Shown here: positions 9,983-19,117 of the stretch, in pieces
How positions within the stretch are numbered: the stretch's first letter is position 1
Layout: every line of letters starts with the position of its first letter
From: a virus
Lineage: Duplodnaviria; Heunggongvirae; Uroviricota; Caudoviricetes
Virus record (IMG/VR): IMGVR_UViG_2576861104_000010
Reading direction: 5' to 3' (one strand)
Length of the DNA stretch: 45,889 nucleotides
Notes under the pieces: model-generated
Seen by the model: only the letters and a program-made list of their open reading frames with translations
The model's database searches: none
Told to the model about the DNA's origin: nothing
Program-made: the position numbers and the translations under genes

Positions 9983-11545
9983 ATGAAAATGACAAGTATT
10001 CAACAACGTGCAGAGCTTCATCGTCAAATCTGGCAAATTGCTAACGATGTCAGGGGTTCGGTCGATGGATGGGATTTTAAGCAATACGTTCTGGGCGCAC
10101 TTTTCTACCGTTTTATCAGCGAAAATTTTTCCAGCTATATTGAAGCCGGTGATGACAGTATCTGTTATGCGAAACTGGATGACAGCGTAATTACTGATGA
10201 CATTAAAGACGATGCCATCAAAACCAAAGGCTACTTCATCTACCCAAGTCAGCTTTTCTGCAACGTAGCTGCGAAAGCAAATACTAATGACAGACTGAAT
10301 GCAGATTTAAACAGCATCTTCGTTGCTATCGAAAGTTCTGCTTACGGTTACCCTTCAGAAGCTGACATCAAAGGTTTGTTTGCTGATTTCGATACCACCA
10401 GTAACCGCCTGGGTAACACCGTTAAGGATAAAAATACCCGCCTGGCCGCGGTTCTGAAAGGGGTTGAAGGATTAAAACTTGGCGACTTCAACGAACATCA
10501 GATTGACCTGTTCGGCGATGCCTATGAGTTCCTGATTTCTAACTATGCGGCGAATGCCGGTAAGTCCGGCGGCGAGTTCTTTACACCGCAGCACGTCTCT
10601 AAGCTGATTGCACAACTGGCAATGCACGGCCAGACCCACGTTAACAAAATCTACGACCCGGCAGCAGGTTCCGGTTCGCTGTTATTGCAGGCTAAAAAGC
10701 AGTTTGATGACCACATCATCGAAGAAGGTTTTTTTGGTCAGGAGATCAACCATACGACCTATAACCTGGCGCGTATGAACATGTTTTTGCACAACATCAA
10801 CTACGACAAGTTTGATATCAAGCTGGGCAATACGCTGACTGAGCCGCACTTCAGAGATGAAAAACCGTTTGATGCCATCGTTTCTAACCCGCCGTATTCG
10901 GTGAAATGGATTGGCAGCGATGACCCGACGCTGATTAACGATGAACGTTTTGCCCCGGCTGGCGTTCTGGCCCCCAAATCCAAAGCTGACTTTGCGTTTG
11001 TATTACATGCGCTGAACTATCTTTCTGCCAAAGGTCGTGCTGCGATTGTCTGCTTCCCGGGCATTTTTTACCGTGGCGGCGCGGAGCAGAAAATCCGTCA
11101 GTATCTGGTTGACAATAACTATGTCGAAACCGTGATTTCACTCGCACCGAACCTGTTCTTTGGCACCACCATTGCCGTAAATATTCTGGTGCTGTCTAAA
11201 CATAAAACGGATACCAAAGTTCAGTTTATTGATGCCAGCGAACTGTTCAAAAAAGAGACTAACAACAACATTCTGACCGATGCCCATATCGAAAAAATTA
11301 TGCAGGTATTTTCCAGCAAAGAAGATGTTGCCCATCTGGCAAAATCTGTCGCGTTTGAGGCCGTTGTCGCGAATGACTATAACCTGTCAGTGAGCAGCTA
11401 TGTAGAAGTGAAAGATAACCGCGAAACTATCGATATTGCTGAGCTAAATGCTGAGCTGAAAACCACGGTCAGCAAAATCGACCAGTTGCGTAAAGATATT
11501 GATGCGATTGTGGCTGAAATTGAAGGCTGCGAGGTGCAGAAATGA
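9983..11545 (+). CDS. hsdM: Type I R-M methyltransferase subunit HsdM, 520 aa
   Basis: N6-adenine methyltransferase NPPY motif (IVSNPPYS), AdoMet-binding ([10 protein letters not shown]); 520 aa as in EcoR124-type HsdM; stop overlaps the hsdS start. Confidence 0.9.
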
Positions 11546-12771
11546 GCGAGTTGAGTTATCTGGAAAAATTGCTGGATGGGGTTGAGGTTGAGTGGGTACC
11601 TGTATCAGAACTATTTCAAATTAAAAATGGGTATACACCTTCAAAATCCAAGAAAGAATTTTGGGAGAATGGAACCATTCCATGGTTCAGACTAGAAGAT
11701 GTCAGAGTCAATGGTAGGGAATTAAATGATTCTATCCAACACATAAATCCATTAGGAGTTAAAGGTTGTCTGTTCCCGAAAAACTCTATTTTCATGTCTA
11801 CAACAGCTACCATTGGGGAGTATGCTTTAGTAAGGGTCCCTTATTTAACAAATCAACAAATCACAAACTTTTCCATTTCTGAAAAATTCAGTGAAGCGGT
11901 CAATATAAAATATATTTTTTATAGGTTTTATGATTTCGGCAAGTGGTGTACGGAGAATGCTAATAAAAGTGGTGGAGTATCTATAATTGGACTCAAAAAA
12001 CTGTCTCAATATCAGTTCCCAATCCCTTGCCCGGATAATCCGGAAAAATCCCTTGCCATCCAGTCTGAAATCGTTCGGATTCTGGATAAATTTACTGCAC
12101 TTACCGCTGAGCTTACCGCTGAGCTTAACATGCGTAAAAAACAGTACAACTACTATCGTGACCAGTTGTTGAGGTTTAAAGAGGGTGAGGTTGAGTGGAA
12201 GGCATTGGATGATGTTTTTGACATTGTTGCAGGCGGCGATGCACCAAAAGATGCCTTATCCGAATTTGAGACCGAGGAATTCAGCATCCCCGTTTTATCA
12301 AACGGTATAGGTAATAAATCACTATATGGATGGACTGACAGAGCCAAGATTGAGAAACCGAGTCTCACCATATCTGCAAGAGGTACTATTGGATGGACTA
12401 GCTATAGAAGTAGACCATTCTTTCCGATAGTGCGACTGCTGGTCTTGACGCCAAAAATTAAATTAAACTTGAAGTACGCTTATTACTTCATGAAAACCAT
12501 TGAGAATAATTACAAAATCCCTGAGGCAGGCATACCCCAGCTAACTAAACCGATGCTCAAAGACATTAAAATCCCCTTCCCATGCCCCGGTAATCCGGAG
12601 GAATCTTATAACGAACAAGCCAGAATCGCAGCGACTCTCGACAAATTTGACGTCTTAACAAATTCGATTACCGAAGGTCTTCCGCGTGAAATCGAGTTGC
12701 GCCAGAAACAATACGAGTACTATCGTGATTTACTGTTCAGTTTCCCAAAACCCAAAACTGTCAGTAATTAA
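11542..12771 (+). CDS. hsdS: Type I R-M specificity subunit HsdS, 409 aa
   Basis: Two target-recognition domains separated by a conserved central region ([24 protein letters not shown]) with a matching C-terminal repeat ([18 protein letters not shown]); ATGA overlap with hsdM. Confidence 0.85.
12103..12126 (+). repeat. Two tandem copies of a 12-bp repeat (ACCGCTGAGCTT) in the hsdS central conserved region
   Basis: Read directly; encodes TAEL-TAEL. In EcoR124I versus EcoR124II the copy number of this repeat sets the spacer length of the recognition site. Confidence 0.8.
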
Positions 12772-12892
12772 TTGACCATTGCTACAGACCGGCTCACCTT
12801 AACATCCGGTCAGTATATAGACTATTTTTTACACGCCGGAAGTCACTCTTAACTCCCTTCCGGCCCTTGCCAGACGGCACAAAGGATGCGCT

Positions 12893-15800
12893 ATGACTCA
12901 TCAGACACACACCATTGCTGAATCCAATAACTTTATCGTTCTTGATAAGTACATCAAAGCTGAGCAAACAGGCGACAGCTATCAGAGCGAATCGGACCTG
13001 GAACGTGAACTGATTCAGGACCTACAAAATCAGGGCTATGAATTTATAGCCGTAAAATCTCAGTCAGCGATGCTGGCCAATGCTCGGGAACAGCTTCAGA
13101 GCCTCAATGGTGTGGTGTTTAATGACAGCGAGTGGCGGCGTTTCACGGAGCAGTATCTGGACAACCCGAGCGATGGCATTCTGGATAAGACCCGTAAAAT
13201 CCATATCGACTATATCTGCGACTTTATTTTTGACGACGGGCGTCTTGAGAACATCTATCTGATCGATAAAAAGAATCTCATGCGCAACAAAGTGCAGATT
13301 ATCCAGCAGTTTGAACAGGCAGGTTCTCACGCTAACCGTTATGACGTAACTATCCTGGTTAATGGCTTGCCGCTGGTGCAAATCGAACTGAAAAAACGCG
13401 GCGTGGCGATTCGTGAAGCGTTCAACCAGATACACCGTTACAGCAAAGAGAGTTTTAACAGCGAAAATTCTCTGTTTAAGTATCTGCAACTGTTTGTCAT
13501 TTCCAACGGTACCGATACCCGTTATTTTGCCAACACAACAAAGCGCGATAAAAACAGTTTTGACTTCACCATGAACTGGGCGAAATCAGACAACACGCTG
13601 ATTAAAGACCTCAAAGATTTTACCGCTACCTTTTTCCAGAAACATACTCTGCTGAATGTTCTGGTGAACTACAGCGTGTTTGACAGTAGTCAGACGCTAC
13701 TGGTGATGCGACCGTACCAGATTGCAGCTACCGAACGAATTTTATGGAAAATCAACAGCTCCTATAAAGCGAAAAACTGGTCTAACCCCGAAAGCGGTGG
13801 CTTTATCTGGCACACCACTGGTTCCGGTAAAACACTGACCAGCTTTAAAGCCGCGCGTCTGGCAACAGAACTGGACTTTATTGATAAAGTCTTCTTCGTG
13901 GTCGACAGGAAAGACCTCGATTACCAGACCATGAAGGAATATCAGCGTTTTTCGCCAGATAGTGTTAACGGCTCGGAAAATACAGCAGGTCTTAAACGAA
14001 ATCTGGATAAGGACGATAACAAAATTATCGTCACCACTATTCAGAAACTTAATAACCTGATGAAAGCAGAAAGCGACCTGCCTGTATACAATCAGCAAGT
14101 GGTGTTTATATTTGATGAATGCCACCGCAGCCAGTTTGGAGAAGCGCAGAAAAACCTGAAGAAGAAATTCAAACGCTATTATCAGTTTGGTTTTACCGGC
14201 ACACCTATTTTCCCGGAAAACGCCTTAGGCTCAGAAACGACCGCCAGCGTATTTGGTCGTGAATTGCATTCGTATGTAATTACCGATGCGATTCGTGATG
14301 AAAAAGTGCTCAAATTCAAGGTGGACTACAACGATGTGCGGCCACAGTTTAAGTCTTTAGAGACAGAAACTGACGAGAAAAAACTGAGTGCGGCTGAAAA
14401 TCAGCAGGCGTTTCTTCATCCCATGCGTATTCAGGAAATCACGCAATATATTCTGAATAACTTCCGCCAGAAAACCCACCGTACCTTCCCTGGCTCAAAA
14501 GGTTTTAATGCTATGTTGGCAGTGAGCAGCGTGGATGCTGCAAAAGCCTATTACGCGACGTTTAAACGGTTACAAGAGGAAGCAGCTAATAAATCGGCCA
14601 CCTATAAACCGCTGCATATTGCGACAATCTTCTCCTTTGCTGCCAATGAAGAACAAAATGCCATTGGTGAAATTTCCGATGAAACTTTTGATACCAGCGC
14701 AATGGACAGCAGTGCTAAAGAGTTTCTTGATGCTGCAATTCGTGAGTATAACAGCTATTTTAAAACTAACTTCAGCACCGACAGTAACGGTTTTCAGAAC
14801 TACTATCGTGATTTAGCCCAACGGGTTAAAAATCAGGATATCGATCTGTTAATTGTCGTGGGGATGTTTTTAACTGGCTTCGATGCTCCAACATTGAACA
14901 CGCTATTCGTCGATAAAAACCTGCGTTTTCACGGCCTGATGCAGGCATTTTCCCGCACCAACCGTATTTATGATGCAACTAAAACCTTCGGTAATATCGT
15001 CACTTTCCGGGATCTGGAACGCTCAACTATTGATGCCATAACGCTGTTTGGTGACAAAAACACCAAAAATGTGGTTTTAGAAAAGAGTTATGCAGAGTAT
15101 ATGGAAGGCTTTACTGATGCTGCCACTGGTGAAGCTAAGCGCGGCTTTATGGCAGTAGTTTCAGAACTGGAACAACGGTTCCCTGACCCTGCCAGTATTG
15201 AAAGTGAAAAAGAGAAGAAAGACTTCGTTAAACTGTTTGGTGAATACCTGCGTGCCGAGAACATCCTGCAAAACTATGATGAATTTGCCACGCTGAAAGC
15301 CCTGCAACAAATCGATCTTAGCGATCCTGTTGCGGTAGAAAAATTCAAAGAAGAACATTATGTGGATGATGAAAAGTTCGCTGAATTGCAAACGATTCGT
15401 CTCCCTGCTGAACGCAAGATTCAGGATTATCGTTCTGCCTATAACGATATTCGTGACTGGCTGCGCCGTGAGAAAGAAGCTGAGAAAAAAGAGAAATCAA
15501 CCACTGACTGGGATGACGTAGTTTTTGAGGTCGATTTGCTGAAGTCTCAGGAAATAAACCTGGATTATATCCTTGGACTGATTTTCGAACACAACAGACA
15601 AAATAAAGGCAAGGGCGAAATGATCGAAGAGGTCAAACGCTTAATTCGTTCAAGCCTGGGGAACCGTGCTAAAGAGGGCCTGGTGGTCGATTTTATTCAG
15701 CAAACGAACCTGGATGATTTACCGGACAAAGCCAGCATCATTGACGCATTCTTTACGTTTGCTCAACGCGAACAGCAACGTGAAGCAGAAGCATTGATAA

Positions 15801-16009
15801 AAGAAGAAAATCTCAATGAAGAGGCAGCAAAACGTTATATTCGCACGTCTTTAAAACGCGAATACGCCACCGAAAATGGCACAGAATTAAACGAAACATT
15901 ACCAAAACTTAGTCCGTTGAATCCGCAATATAAAACGAAAAAACAGGCAGTTTTCCAGAAAATAGTCTCGTTTATTGAGAAGTTTAAAGGCGTAGGCGGA
16001 AAAATATAG
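12893..16009 (+). CDS. hsdR: Type I restriction endonuclease subunit HsdR, 1038 aa
   Basis: Helicase motifs (TTGSGKT Walker A, DECHRS motif II) and 1038-aa size typical of type IC HsdR; separate promoter region after hsdS. Confidence 0.9.
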
Positions 16010-16087
16010 CCTAATTCGTGTTTTTCTTGCGGGTTCTTAATTAAACCCGCATGAGACCGTGGGGTTCCAAATGGCTAATATACTCCC

Positions 16088-16174: not shown

Positions 16175-16256
16175 ATTTTCAGCTCCTGTGATTGATTGGA
16201 TACATGCCGCGCCTTGCGGCATGTTTTTATTTTCACTTTCTCTGCTTTAAAAAGCA

Positions 16257-16273
16257 AGATTTATTAGAGCAAT
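16257..16273 (-). promoter_or_regulatory. C1 operator-like site at the 3' end of the HAD gene
   Basis: Reverse complement ATTGCTCTAATAAATCT, one mismatch to consensus. Confidence 0.6.
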
Positions 16274-16779
16274 TATTGTTGATGAAGAAGCGCATTTTCG
16301 TACTCTCTGACCATTAACGTAAGCACGCCGTGATGCCTGAAAACACGCGCTACTTCAATCTTATCTTCCAGCGCGAACGCAATTTTACTTAGACCAATTT
16401 TCTTAAGGAGATCAATCTTTGCTGGACCATCATTTCTGTCATCGGTGGCAGGACGCATAGATAGCAAAGGCTCAGCCCCGTTTGTTACGTGCTTACGCAA
16501 CCAGGCTCGTGTTTTATCCCTGGCTATCTCACAGCGCCCGGTTACAAACCAGAGCGTGTAAATGCAGGACAACTGGCGCACCATATCAATAACTGGAGTT
16601 ATGGGTGTATCGGTGTCACAGGCGAGATTAAACTCGTTCCAGTCCTTTGTTAATGCACCTTTGCCTGGTGGCGGAAGCAAATGCAGCCTGTCTTCAGTTG
16701 CTTCTGATATTGTTCCATCAATATCGACTACGACGATGTACGGACGTTCCAGGTGTGCCTGTTTGTTGAAAATACTCAA
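16273..16779 (-). CDS. HAD-superfamily phosphatase-like protein, 168 aa
   Basis: Motif I VVVDIDGT (DxDGT), motif II-like WFVTGR, acidic motif ATDDRNDG; small HAD phosphatase fold, substrate unknown. Confidence 0.6.
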   Translation of the reverse strand: MSIFNKQAHLERPYIVVVDIDGTISEATEDRLHLLPPPGKGALTKDWNEFNLACDTDTPITPVIDMVRQLSCIYTLWFVTGRCEIARDKTRAWLRKHVTNGAEPLLSMRPATDDRNDGPAKIDLLKKIGLSKIAFALEDKIEVARVFRHHGVLTLMVREYENALLHQQ

Positions 16780-16851
16780 ATGCCCTCCTCATTGGACGAA
16801 AAAAATGCTGGTGGGTGCACTCCACCAGCATTAAAAGTGACACTGTAACTA

Positions 16852-18114
16852 TCAGCGAACGTAAATAGTACCGCCGTTCTCTTTTTCCCATGCATCGCTA
16901 CGTGCATAGCAAACATCGAGAAGTCTTCTTGCCGCTGTTTCCTCTAAACCCAATTCGACAACCAACTGCTCATGACGGCGGGTAACCACATCAAACAGGG
17001 TATGCAGCCCTTTAGCTGCCAGATCATCAATAAATTCCGGTTCGAACGGCAGCTCTGCCTCTGCCAACATAACCTCTTGCGCCCACTCAACTCGACGGAC
17101 CAGTTCCGGGCGGCGGCTTTCCATCTCTTTACAGATCAATTCATGGAAGAACTCTACCCAACCTTCCGGCTGGAACTCGCGGAAAATGGCCAACGGCTGG
17201 AAGTTTGGCATCAACCATTCGTTGATACGGATATCAATGGCATAGCCCATGTCGCAGCAGAACTGATAAGCAAAGTCCAGCTTAGAAACGATATAAGGAC
17301 GCTCGTTATTGAACTCTTTAGGCGATGAGATCCCATAAGCCAGGAGGCGCGGGAAGAATGAGATTTGCCCTAACGTCGGATGAAGTTTGCTTGCAGGGAA
17401 ATGGCGCTCAGTAATGCCATACATTTCCTTCTTGAGCGTCGCAAATTTGGCATTCTCATTAACCAGCGCGGTAACCTCTGCTTTTTTATTAGCAAATGCC
17501 ACGCGCGCTTCGCTTGCATCTTTAATAGTTTTTTTGAGCTGTTGGTTAAGGTCGGCGACCTGTTTACGCAGTTCCTGCCGCTCGCTTTTAGCTTTGTTAT
17601 AGCGTTTCTCAAGGTTAAAAGGATCAAGTTTCATGATCTCTTTATATTGAGATTTTAGCGTTGAAATCTGTGAGTTCCGCAGTTCAACCATCGCGGTCAT
17701 TTCATTGAGTTTTGTTTCCAGCTCAATGCTTATACGTTCGGCATTATCAGCACGCTGGTTGGCGTCATGCGTCGCATCGTCGATCGCGTCCTGTTGCTGG
17801 CGTTTCAAATGTTCAATTTGCAGCTGAAGCTCTTCAATTTCTTTACCCTTCAGACCGAGATCCAACTGCATATTTTCAGCTGCATCTACCAGGGAGTTAT
17901 GGCTATCAGCTTCTGCGTTATAAACATCAATAAGCTGTGCGTGAAGCATCTCCGCTGACTGAACCGCATTATCAAAAAAACGTGCTGTGAGGTCATCACA
18001 ACTAACGCGGCGTTGCGCGGCCCGGATGTTCTGGATAATGGCCGGGATACCGGCATTCAGGACATCAGGGATAGATACATTTTCGATTGATTGGTTTTGT
18101 GCTGAAGTGCTCAT
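16852..18114 (-). CDS. Hypothetical protein with long N-terminal coiled coil and uncharacterised C-terminal domain, 420 aa
   Basis: Heptad-rich, charged residues about 60-230; no Walker or other catalytic motifs seen; first gene product after a C1-operator pair. Confidence 0.55.
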   Translation of the reverse strand: MSTSAQNQSIENVSIPDVLNAGIPAIIQNIRAAQRRVSCDDLTARFFDNAVQSAEMLHAQLIDVYNAEADSHNSLVDAAENMQLDLGLKGKEIEELQLQIEHLKRQQQDAIDDATHDANQRADNAERISIELETKLNEMTAMVELRNSQISTLKSQYKEIMKLDPFNLEKRYNKAKSERQELRKQVADLNQQLKKTIKDASEARVAFANKKAEVTALVNENAKFATLKKEMYGITERHFPASKLHPTLGQISFFPRLLAYGISSPKEFNNERPYIVSKLDFAYQFCCDMGYAIDIRINEWLMPNFQPLAIFREFQPEGWVEFFHELICKEMESRRPELVRRVEWAQEVMLAEAELPFEPEFIDDLAAKGLHTLFDVVTRRHEQLVVELGLEETAARRLLDVCYARSDAWEKENGGTIYVR

Positions 18115-18115
18115 T

Positions 18116-18334
18116 TCAAAGTTCCGTATTAGCTTGTGCTTCGGTCATTTTTCCTAAGTATGAAGGTGGAAGGACTACGCAATTTGTATCCAGTCCCTCA
18201 CCTATGGCAGCCTGTAAAATTCTGGCTAAGGTGAGTCTCTTGTTGCGATACCTGGTGATGACATGCCTGATACCGCCGGTCGGCGTAACAAAGGCGATCA
18301 GCCAGTAGTGATATTTCCGTCGGAATGGCCACAT
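18116..18334 (-). CDS. Small hypothetical protein, 72 aa
   Basis: ORF immediately downstream of the C1-operator pair; stop abuts the start of the 420-aa gene. Confidence 0.4.
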   Translation of the reverse strand: MWPFRRKYHYWLIAFVTPTGGIRHVITRYRNKRLTLARILQAAIGEGLDTNCVVLPPSYLGKMTEAQANTEL

Positions 18335-18348
18335 AGTGCACCCTGTAG

Positions 18349-18365
18349 ATTGCTCTAATAAAAAA
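18349..18365 (+). promoter_or_regulatory. C1 operator (left of a facing pair)
   Basis: ATTGCTCTAATAAAAAA. Confidence 0.65.
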
Positions 18366-18397
18366 CTTGATGAGTGTACATCACGTTTTAAAAATAT

Positions 18398-18414
18398 GGA
18401 ATTATTAGAGCAAT
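18398..18414 (-). promoter_or_regulatory. C1 operator (right of a facing pair)
   Basis: Reverse complement ATTGCTCTAATAATTCC; with 18349-18365 it forms an inverted pair about 50 bp apart around a promoter-like AT-rich core. Confidence 0.65.
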
Positions 18415-18415
18415 A

Positions 18416-19117
18416 TTATTCTGATGCTTGCTCAAAAAATGAGCTGATAAGGGGAAGCCAATCCTCTGACACTTCGCGAGGTCGCGGTTTGCCGTGGAAA
18501 AAGATTATTCGGCAGTCTTTTGGTAATGCCCCATTCCCCCTGGAGTAACGCGCGCTCGCATATTTTGAACCAGGTTCCACAACATCGGCCTTGTAACTTA
18601 CAAACCATCCTGGATACAGATCCTGAAATGCTGGTGTATCATCGCCCATAACCTTTCGTAAGAACCCCTGGTCACCCCAGCACTCAGTAGTGACACAACG
18701 AGAAATCCAACCTTCCGGATCTTGCCAGAATGAACTCCAGATATGCGCTTTAACACTATTTGGTATCCACAGGGCACCGCTGCCACGATATTGTGGATGG
18801 TAAAAATCCCTAAGCATGGTGAAGCTGGTTGGTGGATGCTCTAGGATTGGGCGTATATCACCAGCAATAACCGTGTCCAAATCCAGATAGAACAGATCAT
18901 CGGTTATATCCGGTCGGAACAACTCGATTTTCGCCCACCAGCCACGGCACTTTTGCCACTGGTTGATCAATGGGACAACTTTGACGCCAGGTACATGTAA
19001 ACGCTTCAGGTCTGTCAGGCAAATAATTTCATAGCCTTTTGGCAGTTGATTAACCAGCCACTGCACATCGGAAGCGTTATAGTCACCACCAGAGCGAAAA
19101 ACTAAAGCAATCTTCAT
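18416..19117 (-). CDS. Hypothetical protein, possibly a GT-A-like glycosyltransferase, 233 aa
   Basis: Hydrophobic stretch then DLD (FYLDLDTV), resembling a DxD nucleotide-sugar-binding motif; assignment is weak. Confidence 0.45.

Follow-up and report, generated by a model that had tools for sequence, protein, structure and literature searches.

The stretch of DNA analysed here (the window; 45,889 nucleotides, virus record IMGVR_UViG_2576861104_000010) contains three genes accompanied by C1 operators, and the questions that this locus raises are what the genes do and whether they form a single operon. Positions 16257 to 18414 are 98% identical to phage P1 at the nucleotide level. A 4-kb query matched 19 P1-type records (P1, P7 and 17 others) with 98.0–98.4% identity and 95–100% coverage, and the locus is collinear with the pmgR-pmgS-pap locus of P1, gene order and annotations coinciding with the P1 and P7 records. 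When the P1 annotation is projected onto the window (offset 12084), the letters of Op86a, Op86b and Op88 are exactly those of P1, and 72/72 residues of PmgR, 416/420 of PmgS and 157/168 of Pap are identical. Judged by this sequence identity, the segment belongs to a P1-type phage-plasmid and is its pmgR-pmgS-pap block, which has been annotated before and is ordinary for P1. Every element of the gene block and operators described in the original prediction is present where it was placed (Table 1).

P1 (AF234172 / NC_005856) has the gene order, the operators and the flanking ppp-pmgQ genes in common with the window, with PmgR 100%, PmgS 99% and Pap 93.5% identical. The two differ downstream of Op88, where P1 carries pmgT-pmgU-pmgV-upfMNO-hot-lxr-humD whereas in the window an EcoR124-type hsdMSR cassette follows on the opposite strand. 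P7 (AF503408) has the same genes and operators, named shtA-shtB-pap with Op(sht[a]), Op(sht[b]) and Op(hea); its PmgS (ShtB) differs at 2 residues and its ShtA is 100% identical to PmgR of the window. The block has been part of the P1 annotation since 2004 and deletion phenotypes were in print in 2022–2023. What is new here is the split into two units, the inter-operator hairpin, the assignment of Pap to the PNKP type, and the domain layout of PmgS with the context of its relatives. The explanation that we favour, and hold to be very probable as a whole, is that this is a P1 orthologue in which C1 represses pmgR-pmgS, a terminator precedes pap, PmgS acts on DNA and Pap is a 3'-phosphatase.

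Table 1. Features of the pmgR-pmgS-pap locus, in coordinates of the window
Feature	Position	Strand	Remarks
Op86a (OpmgRa), C1 operator ATTGCTCTAATAATTCC	18398..18414	-	Starts 2 nt past the pmgQ stop codon
PpmgR, predicted (P1 record)	18385..18413	-	-35 TTGCTC at 18408-18413, in Op86a; -10 TAAAAC at 18385-18390
Alternative conserved -10-like hexamer TACACT	18373-18378	-	TATCAT or TATTAT in relatives
Inter-operator hairpin AAAACGUGAUG-UACACU-CAUCAAGUUUU, then U-run	18362..18389	-	Conserved; folding energies in text
Op86b (OpmgRb), C1 operator ATTGCTCTAATAAAAAA	18349..18365	+	Inverted relative to Op86a; just upstream of the pmgR ribosome-binding site
pmgR, 72 aa	18116..18334	-	100% identical to P1 PmgR and P7 ShtA
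pmgS, 420 aa	16852..18114	-	ATG 1 nt past the pmgR stop
Terminator-like hairpin after pmgS	16797..16832 (hairpin 16804-16832)	-	11-bp stem, 6 GC pairs, U7 tail
pap, 168 aa, TTG start, GAGGAGG Shine-Dalgarno	16273..16779	-	Pfam PF25109, PHROG 415 and 505
Op88 (OpmgT), C1 operator ATTGCTCTAATAAATCT	16257..16273	-	Consensus search and identity to P1 protein_bind feature

The window was searched for C1 operators with a 17-bp asymmetric consensus (ATTGCTCTAATAAATTT), allowing up to three mismatches. There were 12 matches compared with 0.23 expected, an enrichment of approximately 50-fold over chance, and none of 100 shuffles reached 12. Op86a, Op86b and Op88 each have one or three mismatches to the consensus. 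Op86a and Op86b converge with a centre-to-centre distance of 49 bp, in agreement with the two facing operators 50 bp apart that had been predicted, and Op88, which had been placed at the 3' end of the HAD gene, overlaps the pap stop codon by one base. The P1 GenBank record lists these sites as 'former Op86a/b, Op88', citing the deposited operator sequences M25414 and X98146, and the P1/P7 GenBank text states that 'OpmgRa ... controls expression of pmgR and pmgS'. Op86a is kept at the same place in two relatives, L012 and L013, and both retain the core of Op86b (TTATTAGAGCAA); the two pmgR operators stay in place and in the same orientation even where the PmgS of a relative is only 52–71% identical. 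The predicted C1 control of pmgR-pmgS therefore appears to be right, being given in the P1/P7 records and accompanied by operators that are kept in diverged relatives. The 3' end of pap carries an operator in L012 and L013 as well. Op88 controls promoters reading downstream (pmgT in P1), not pap, and would belong to the next promoter in that direction.

The promoter expected between the operators is a predicted one: PpmgR is given in the P1 record, and a promoter consensus scan finds none, as neither of the -10 candidates (TAAAAC and TACACT) passes. The predicted -35 falls within Op86a, and the region where transcription should start is covered by Op86b. In the lysogen, C1 bound to the converging Op86a and Op86b would block a weak sigma-70 promoter between them, and the bound repressor may also act as a roadblock to read-through from the upstream ppp-pmgQ unit. 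At induction or early in infection the promoter would fire to give a bicistronic pmgR-pmgS message.

There is a hairpin between the operators, and the layout of operator, hairpin and inverted operator is retained in L012 and L013 despite their diverged proteins. Its folding energy is -15.0 kcal/mol in P1 (z -6.5), -14.4 kcal/mol in L012 and -18.9 kcal/mol in L013. The copy in the window has a mismatch, caused by one C-to-A change relative to P1, and is weaker (-9.2 kcal/mol). Across the relatives one pair is changed on both sides and one to a wobble, but 72 of 500 shuffles equal this, and the covariation rests on three independent sequences. This hairpin could serve to terminate the upstream pmgN-ppp-pmgQ unit.

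A second hairpin is found 20 nt past the pmgS stop, with the end of its tail 17 nt before the start of pap. It has a folding energy of -18.1 kcal/mol (z -3.8) and none of 200 shuffles was as stable. L012 retains it, with a G:C pair replaced by A:T (a compensatory change); in L013 the region after pmgS holds an extra gene and no hairpin. The GC-rich hairpin, U-tract and conservation expected of an intrinsic terminator are all found at this site, suggesting that there are two units rather than one, with the predicted terminator splitting pap from pmgR-pmgS. The pmgR-pmgS message would end at this strong terminator directly after pmgS, and pap, lying behind it, would probably be made by read-through only. 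The three-gene operon including pap that had been proposed is doubtful because the terminator-like hairpin lies between pmgS and pap.

The alternative is that pmgR, pmgS and pap are expressed as one tricistronic operon in which the hairpin after pmgS is an mRNA stabiliser or a processing site. The consensus scan finds no promoter for pap, pap follows pmgS in P1, P7, L012 and L013, the hairpin is absent from L013, and RNA-seq of P1vir shows that an hfq mutant shifts pmgS and pap in the same way (bioRxiv 10.64898/2025.12.28.696737). We nevertheless think a single operon unlikely, given the full terminator anatomy with seven U's directly after the stem, the compensatory change in L012 and the P1 record, which gives Op86 only pmgR and pmgS. 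The two conserved hairpins of the two-unit arrangement sharpen the transcription map for those who engineer P1.

The original prediction considered the function of all three genes to be unknown. For pmgR this no longer holds: when the gene is deleted in frame, heads and tails stay separate; the deletion is complemented in trans and shows the gene to be essential (PMC9024508), so that PmgR is required for head-tail joining. PmgR homologues are located directly upstream of PmgS homologues in six P1-like relatives, as in P1 itself, and are absent from the non-P1 contexts of PmgS relatives.

Pap had been recognised as a small HAD-fold phosphatase, and it scores 42.6 bits with the Pfam model PF25109 (HAD_PNKP; cutoff 27.6, E 8.7e-11). 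All the catalytic motifs are present: DIDGT (residues 19–23), TGR (80–82), DDRND (113–117), K121 and EDK (138–140). Residues 56–152 align to Pnkp1 (PDB 4xrp), with the motifs from TGR onward corresponding and DIDGT outside the alignment. The phosphatase motifs of T4 Pnk/PseT and bacterial Pnkp1, that is DxDGT, (S/T)GR, an acidic loop with Lys and (E/D)D, are thus kept in Pap. T4 Pnk is bifunctional, with an N-terminal P-loop 5'-kinase, whereas Pap is the phosphatase domain alone: no kinase domain was found, there is no Walker A motif by inspection of the sequence, and Pap covers only positions 158–292 of the 295-position PHROG 505 model. On these motifs Pap is a stand-alone PNKP-type HAD 3'-phosphatase, and the GenBank label '3'-phosphatase, 5'-polynucleotide kinase' overstates it, the kinase part being wrong. 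The enzyme would remove 3'-phosphates from nucleic-acid ends or nucleotides.

PmgS appears to be arranged into a coiled coil (residues ~41–232, with a conserved break at Pro165), an alpha/beta domain (~235–350) and an (HhH)2 domain (~355–412). The coiled coil of roughly 170 residues that had been predicted within the 420-aa protein corresponds to AlphaFold helices 41–146 and 165–232, which probably dimerise. Structure prediction and a fold search had been proposed for the C-terminal domain; when these were run, an (HhH)2 domain was recognised and the alpha/beta part was left without a match. The C-terminal model (pLDDT 93.6) is a five-helix fold with two helix-hairpin-helix motifs, as expected of an (HhH)2 domain. 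Matches in PDB fold searches are restricted to this part; the alpha/beta domain has no structural match in the PDB and BFVD fold searches, and the BFVD search gave no significant fold match. Sequence-model searches returned weak matches, to coiled-coil families only. Two candidates were rejected: homology to LmuB/SMC (PADLOC, NCBIfam) reflects coiled-coil composition only, and keratin- and L29-type PDB matches in a single-sequence search are noise.

The PmgS family profile matches the Rad51 NTD (E 4.5e-8) and 12 of 63 family members match HHH_5. P1-type PmgS alone reaches no Pfam HhH model, and its second hairpin reads G-L-E as against the family consensus G-x-G, so DNA binding by the P1 protein is not assured. 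The C-terminal module resembles the (HhH)2 domains of the Rad51/RadA/RAD51C NTD, the RNA polymerase alpha-CTD and NusA AR1/AR2. It differs from them in being located at the C-terminus of a coiled-coil protein, without an ATPase or polymerase core, and in the degenerate second hairpin of the P1 copy.

The coiled-coil architecture and the phosphatases had been taken as possible signs of host takeover or anti-defence, that is, of an early operon in which PmgS and the phosphatases (Pap, and Ppp upstream) neutralise host immunity. The block is indeed early and C1-repressed, and the phage can do without PmgS and Pap in a laboratory K-12 host, which is the usual behaviour of accessory counter-defence genes. 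The genes for PmgS relatives lie in early accessory regions and have DNA methyltransferases of three different families as immediate neighbours, and in P1-like relatives DarB-like methylase-helicases are located a few kb from the PmgS homologues. Additionally, the phosphatase family that includes Pap is that of T4 Pnk, an enzyme that repairs tRNA after cleavage by the anticodon nuclease PrrC. However, Pap lacks the kinase domain, no RNA ligase of P1 is known to us, and the first gene, pmgR, is an essential assembly gene. A role for Pap in countering PrrC from the adjacent type I system was rejected: the hsd cassette contains no prrC, hsdS ending at 12771 and hsdR starting at 12893 (121 bp). 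No defence-related model was matched apart from coiled-coil composition, PADLOC giving only coiled-coil-level matches to LmuB (E about 1e-4). The deletion and plating check that had been suggested is answered in the literature, where phages with an in-frame deletion of pmgS or of pap plate normally, their behaviour on the type I restriction hosts EcoA, EcoB and EcoK being given as 'normal restriction' (PMC9024508 Table S3), and CRISPRi knockdown of either gene is without effect (PMC10695390). Neither PADLOC nor this plating places the proteins in a known anti-defence or defence family; the idea has no direct support and we regard it as quite improbable for the operon. Clear homology to P1 genes and the lack of a deletion phenotype were the results named in advance as counting against it, and this is largely what is found, because the genes are clearly homologous to those of P1 and loss of pmgS or pap has no phenotype. 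For PmgS alone, an anti-defence or DNA-transaction role is possible from the context of its relatives, with their early accessory regions and DNA methyltransferases.

This context was taken from 16 non-P1 loci, in which PmgS homologues have CI, integrase, RecT, exonucleases, RdgC and, usually adjacent, DNA methyltransferases as neighbours, and never head or tail genes. Lambdoid-type temperate phages, with Aeromonas phage phiARM81mr and Vibrio phage douglas 12A4 as examples, have the homologues in their early-left accessory modules on the recombination and lysogeny side, located between CI and integrase and next to exonuclease/RecT, RdgC and orphan DNA methyltransferases. P1 pmgS resembles the genes of these modules in being under repressor control and dispensable. 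It differs in its neighbours, which are pmgR, ppp, pmgQ and pap; neither RecT nor a methyltransferase is adjacent to it. Single-protein scans for related loci found one locus with query P0075 and none with P0060.

The same context bears on the labels that PmgS has inherited, which assign the whole pmgR-pmgS (shtA/shtB) operon to morphogenesis and PmgS to the assembly of the head or sheath. The P1 record gives 'putative morphogenetic function', the P7 record 'sheath structure/contraction' and PHROG 1660 is named 'PmgS-like head morphogenesis'; deletion of pmgR blocks head-tail joining, and in P1-like elements pmgS always lies next to pmgR; in P1, where 1 nt separates them, the two appear to be translationally coupled. 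This strict pairing could mean that PmgS helps PmgR in assembly, redundantly, which speaks against the reading favoured here. We consider a head or sheath assembly role as given in the records very unlikely, given that neither its deletion nor its knockdown causes a plating defect, that its homologues occur without PmgR in recombination and lysogeny modules of other temperate phages, that the -22 motif of late (Lpa) promoters was not found upstream of pmgS (nor of pmgR or pap), and that it carries an (HhH)2 domain, which is typical of DNA-transaction proteins.

In the virion proteome (LC-MS/MS, 23 proteins), PmgR, PmgS (47 kDa) and Pap are all absent, and in the literature an assembly defect is reported on deletion for pmgR only, not for pmgS or pap. 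P7 names the genes as sheath functions, but neither the P1 deletion and proteome data nor anything found in the present analysis gives a sheath role of PmgS support. PmgS looks like an early DNA-associated protein rather than part of the virion, and the inherited 'head morphogenesis' label is probably wrong. This matters because 'putative morphogenetic function', 'PmgS-like head morphogenesis' and 'sheath contraction' have been propagated to many phage genomes.

[quoted passage not shown] More tentatively, and with somewhat less than even confidence, we propose that PmgS-like proteins are a widespread, non-morphogenetic family of early DNA-transaction or counter-defence factors in temperate phages; PHROG 1660 comprises at least 121 clusters at 50% identity. 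A DNA-transaction family that has gone unrecognised is considered because three unrelated methyltransferase families swap into the slot beside a PmgS homologue. If this is true, its members would join a coiled-coil scaffold to an alpha/beta domain of new fold and an (HhH)2 head, and would partner orphan methyltransferases, RecT modules or both. The puzzle that PmgS poses is that pmgS is among the most conserved genes of P1-type phage-plasmids (PMC9603915) and yet is dispensable in the laboratory.

The window is a P1-type phage-plasmid, and 19 P1-type records (P1, P7, SJ46, RCS47, JL22 and others) match a 4 kb query around the locus with 98.0–98.4 % identity. A scan with the 17 bp C1 consensus, allowing up to three mismatches, found 12 operator matches in the window against 0.23 expected by chance, and this count is a lower bound because Op83 of P1 (CATGCACTAATTAATTT), which is present exactly, has four mismatches and is missed. 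Two matches elsewhere in the window (zero and two mismatches) overlap in opposite orientation and form a putative bivalent operator. The operators and genes of the original prediction are therefore real, and every one of these elements is already annotated, as part of a known P1 region; the predicted genes for a 72 aa protein, a coiled-coil protein and a HAD phosphatase are pmgR, pmgS and pap, respectively (shtA, shtB and pap in P7).

Features of the pmgR–pmgS–pap locus and its surroundings (window positions)
Feature	Position	Strand	Remarks
OpmgRa (former Op86a)	18398-18414	-	identical letter-for-letter to P1 feature
OpmgRb (Op86b)	18349-18365	+	identical letter-for-letter to P1 feature
OpmgT (Op88)	16257-16273	-	identical letter-for-letter to P1 feature
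pmgR	18116-18334	-	72/72 residues as in P1 PmgR
pmgS	16852-18114	-	416/420 residues as in P1 PmgS
pap	16273-16779	-	157/168 residues as in P1 Pap
pmgQ	18416-19117		HdmD in P7
Predicted PpmgR -10	18385-18390		TAAAAC
Inter-operator hairpin	18362-18389		between Op86a and Op86b
Hairpin 3' of pmgS	16804-16832		terminator-like
Hairpin with T-run	16202-16224	+	
hsdM-hsdS-hsdR	9983-16085	+	EcoR124-type (type IC)
Op83	21115-21131	+	exact match to P1
Putative bivalent operator	31528-31555		

The predicted control by C1 is supported and already annotated; the P1 record places pmgR and pmgS under the control of Op86a and does not mention pap. The single operon that had been proposed probably holds for a C1-controlled pmgR–pmgS bicistron but not for pap, because there is a strong terminator-like hairpin between pmgS and pap. 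The hairpin has an 11 bp stem with six GC pairs and a U7 tail, its free energy is -18.1 kcal/mol (z -3.8) and none of 200 shuffles was equally stable. It is kept, with a compensatory G:C to A:T change, in L012, a diverged P1-like element whose PmgS is 71 % identical; in a second such element, L013 (PmgS 52 % identical), it is absent and an extra 101 aa gene occupies the site. The gap between pmgR and pmgS is 1 nt. The promoter scan found no promoter-like site ahead of pap, and a motif search found no late-promoter -22 motif in the pmgR–pmgS–pap region. [quoted passage not shown] Op88 would be the operator for the next promoter downstream.

The P1 record predicts a promoter, PpmgR, with a -35 sequence (TTGCTC) within Op86a; a consensus scan found no promoter in this region. 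The gene order ppp–pmgQ–pmgR–pmgS–(pap) is kept in L012 and L013, with one operator directly past the pmgQ stop codon and a second at the 3' end of pap. Alignment of the intergenic regions (window/P1 type, L012 and L013) shows conservation of Op86a, the inverted Op86b core and a block, GTGnTGTAnnnTCnnCA, which forms the hairpin AAAACGUGAUG-UACACU-CAUCACGUUUU followed by a U-run. The free energy of this hairpin is -15.0 kcal/mol in P1 (z -6.5), -9.2 kcal/mol in the window, where one C-to-A mismatch weakens it, and -14.4 and -18.9 kcal/mol in L012 and L013, where the stem letters differ. One pair is altered on both sides across the relatives and another is altered to a wobble pair, but this covariation is only suggestive because there are three independent sequences and 72 of 500 shuffles equal it. 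The loop is a conserved -10-like hexamer (TACACT, TATCAT or TATTAT). The hairpin lacks an annotation in P1 and may serve to terminate the upstream pmgN–ppp–pmgQ unit; both candidate pmgR promoters would start within or after it and so escape termination.

Gonzales et al. (2022; PMC9024508) found that P1 with an in-frame deletion of pmgR yields no infectious particles; tails and incomplete heads are left unjoined, and the defect can be complemented in trans. Phages lacking pmgS or pap through in-frame deletion form normal plaques and show 'normal restriction' on EcoA, EcoB and EcoK hosts (PMC9024508, Table S3), and Piya et al. (2023; PMC10695390) saw no effect when either gene was knocked down with dCas12a. 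In purified virions 23 proteins were detected, none of which is PmgR, PmgS or Pap. Across 77 P1-like phage-plasmids, pmgR and pmgS belong to the 21 genes with the highest conservation (PMC9603915). The description 'unknown function' thus holds for the dispensable PmgS and Pap but not for pmgR, and the clear homology to P1, together with the absence of phenotype on deletion or knockdown of pmgS and pap, largely argues against the host-takeover or anti-defence idea of the original prediction.

Pap scores above the Pfam HAD_PNKP cutoff, covers the phosphatase half of phage polynucleotide kinase models (158–292 of 295 positions, PHROG 505) and aligns to the phosphatase domain of Pnkp1 (PDB 4xrp). 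The motifs DIDGT (19–23), TGR (80–82), DDRND (113–117), K121 and EDK (138–140) are present. There is no kinase domain in Pap, so database labels with '5'-polynucleotide kinase' are an overstatement.

A word-indexed search gave only 29 close relatives of PmgS; the full profile search gave 121 clusters at 50 % identity, mostly of 360–470 aa and aligning end to end. All 63 sampled members are assigned to PHROG 1660 ('PmgS-like head morphogenesis'), a name presumably inherited from the P1 label. At full length, the AlphaFold model is of mediocre quality (pLDDT 70), with helices at 41–146 and 165–232 and, between them, a break near Pro165, which is 90 % conserved. A model of the C-terminal 195 residues, built with a 63-sequence alignment, reaches pLDDT 93.6 and pTM 0.87. 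The family profile matches the Rad51 NTD (E 4.5e-8) and alpha-CTD (E 4.6e-6), and 12 of the 63 members match Pfam HHH_5; the second helix-hairpin-helix (HhH) hairpin is degenerate in P1 PmgS (G-L-E). The HhH part is preceded by an alpha/beta domain (residues about 235–350; motifs EWLxP and HPxLxxRxxWA) for which structure searches found no PDB or BFVD match.

A PmgR homologue is encoded directly upstream of PmgS in six P1-like relatives (L004, L009 and L012–L015), all of which except L013 also encode a DarB-like giant methylase-helicase at a distance of a few kb. At the PmgS loci of the non-P1 temperate phages and prophages examined there is no PmgR, and the homologue lies in the early region between CI and integrase. 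It adjoins RecT (L005, L010, L018, L021, L022 and L025), exonucleases (L007, L010 and L018-type loci), DUF2303 (L008 and L019) or RdgC (L010, L011, L016, L018, L022 and L025). A DNA methyltransferase is found within two genes, often directly downstream, at L006, L008, L010, L011 and L016–L025; at L008, L010, L011 and L016–L025 it is an adenine methyltransferase. The family is swapped among similar Aeromonas prophages: MT-A70 (L020), Dam-type (L021) or another N6 enzyme (L022–L025). At L008, the 45 aa gene called downstream is the N-terminus of an MT-A70 gene (DPPW motif). Head and tail genes are never adjacent in the contexts examined. This neighbourhood is a lead rather than a statistic, since few loci were sampled and some are not independent of each other. 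We consider that PmgS is probably not morphogenetic and regard it as an early accessory factor, associated with DNA and not part of the virion, that acts in recombination, methylation or counter-defence; that it works together with the methyltransferase or recombination modules is a tentative suggestion. The residual value of the locus is modest, namely the correction of a propagated annotation and one testable lead.

In P7, PmgQ is described as 'head morphogenesis'; its PHROG match is 1962 ('glycosyltransferase, moron/host takeover'), and it hits no Pfam family. Its deletion is likewise without phenotype, and its 'pmg' label may be misleading too. Some E. coli P1-like elements encode fusion proteins (P0016 and P0002). 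One is a fusion of the Ppp N-terminus to PmgS 170–420 (463 aa, nine UniRef members), which implies loss of pmgQ and the essential pmgR; in the other, PmgS is fused to a fragment of a DNA-cytosine-methylase (480 aa). Elements with such fusions are probably defective phage-plasmids.

Downstream of pap, the hsd cassette stands in for the pmgT-pmgU-pmgV-upfMNO-hot-lxr-humD genes found in P1 between phd/doc and pap, and P1 homology starts again at 16085. The P1 record already remarks that this junction resembles the flanks of the EcoDXXI and R124 hsd loci. There is no prrC in this type I system. Between 16088 and 16273, where pmgT is gone, Op88 and its predicted promoters now face a short hydrophobic ORF and, beyond it, the 3' end of the convergent hsdR. 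P1 has this ORF too, unannotated. The ORF encodes 44 aa; starting at an internal ATG, which has an AGGAG Shine–Dalgarno sequence, the product would be 28 aa long (MNTAFKIIMAAIYFWLFSITFGGIVAHG). The T-run hairpin overlaps the start codon of the 44 aa version.
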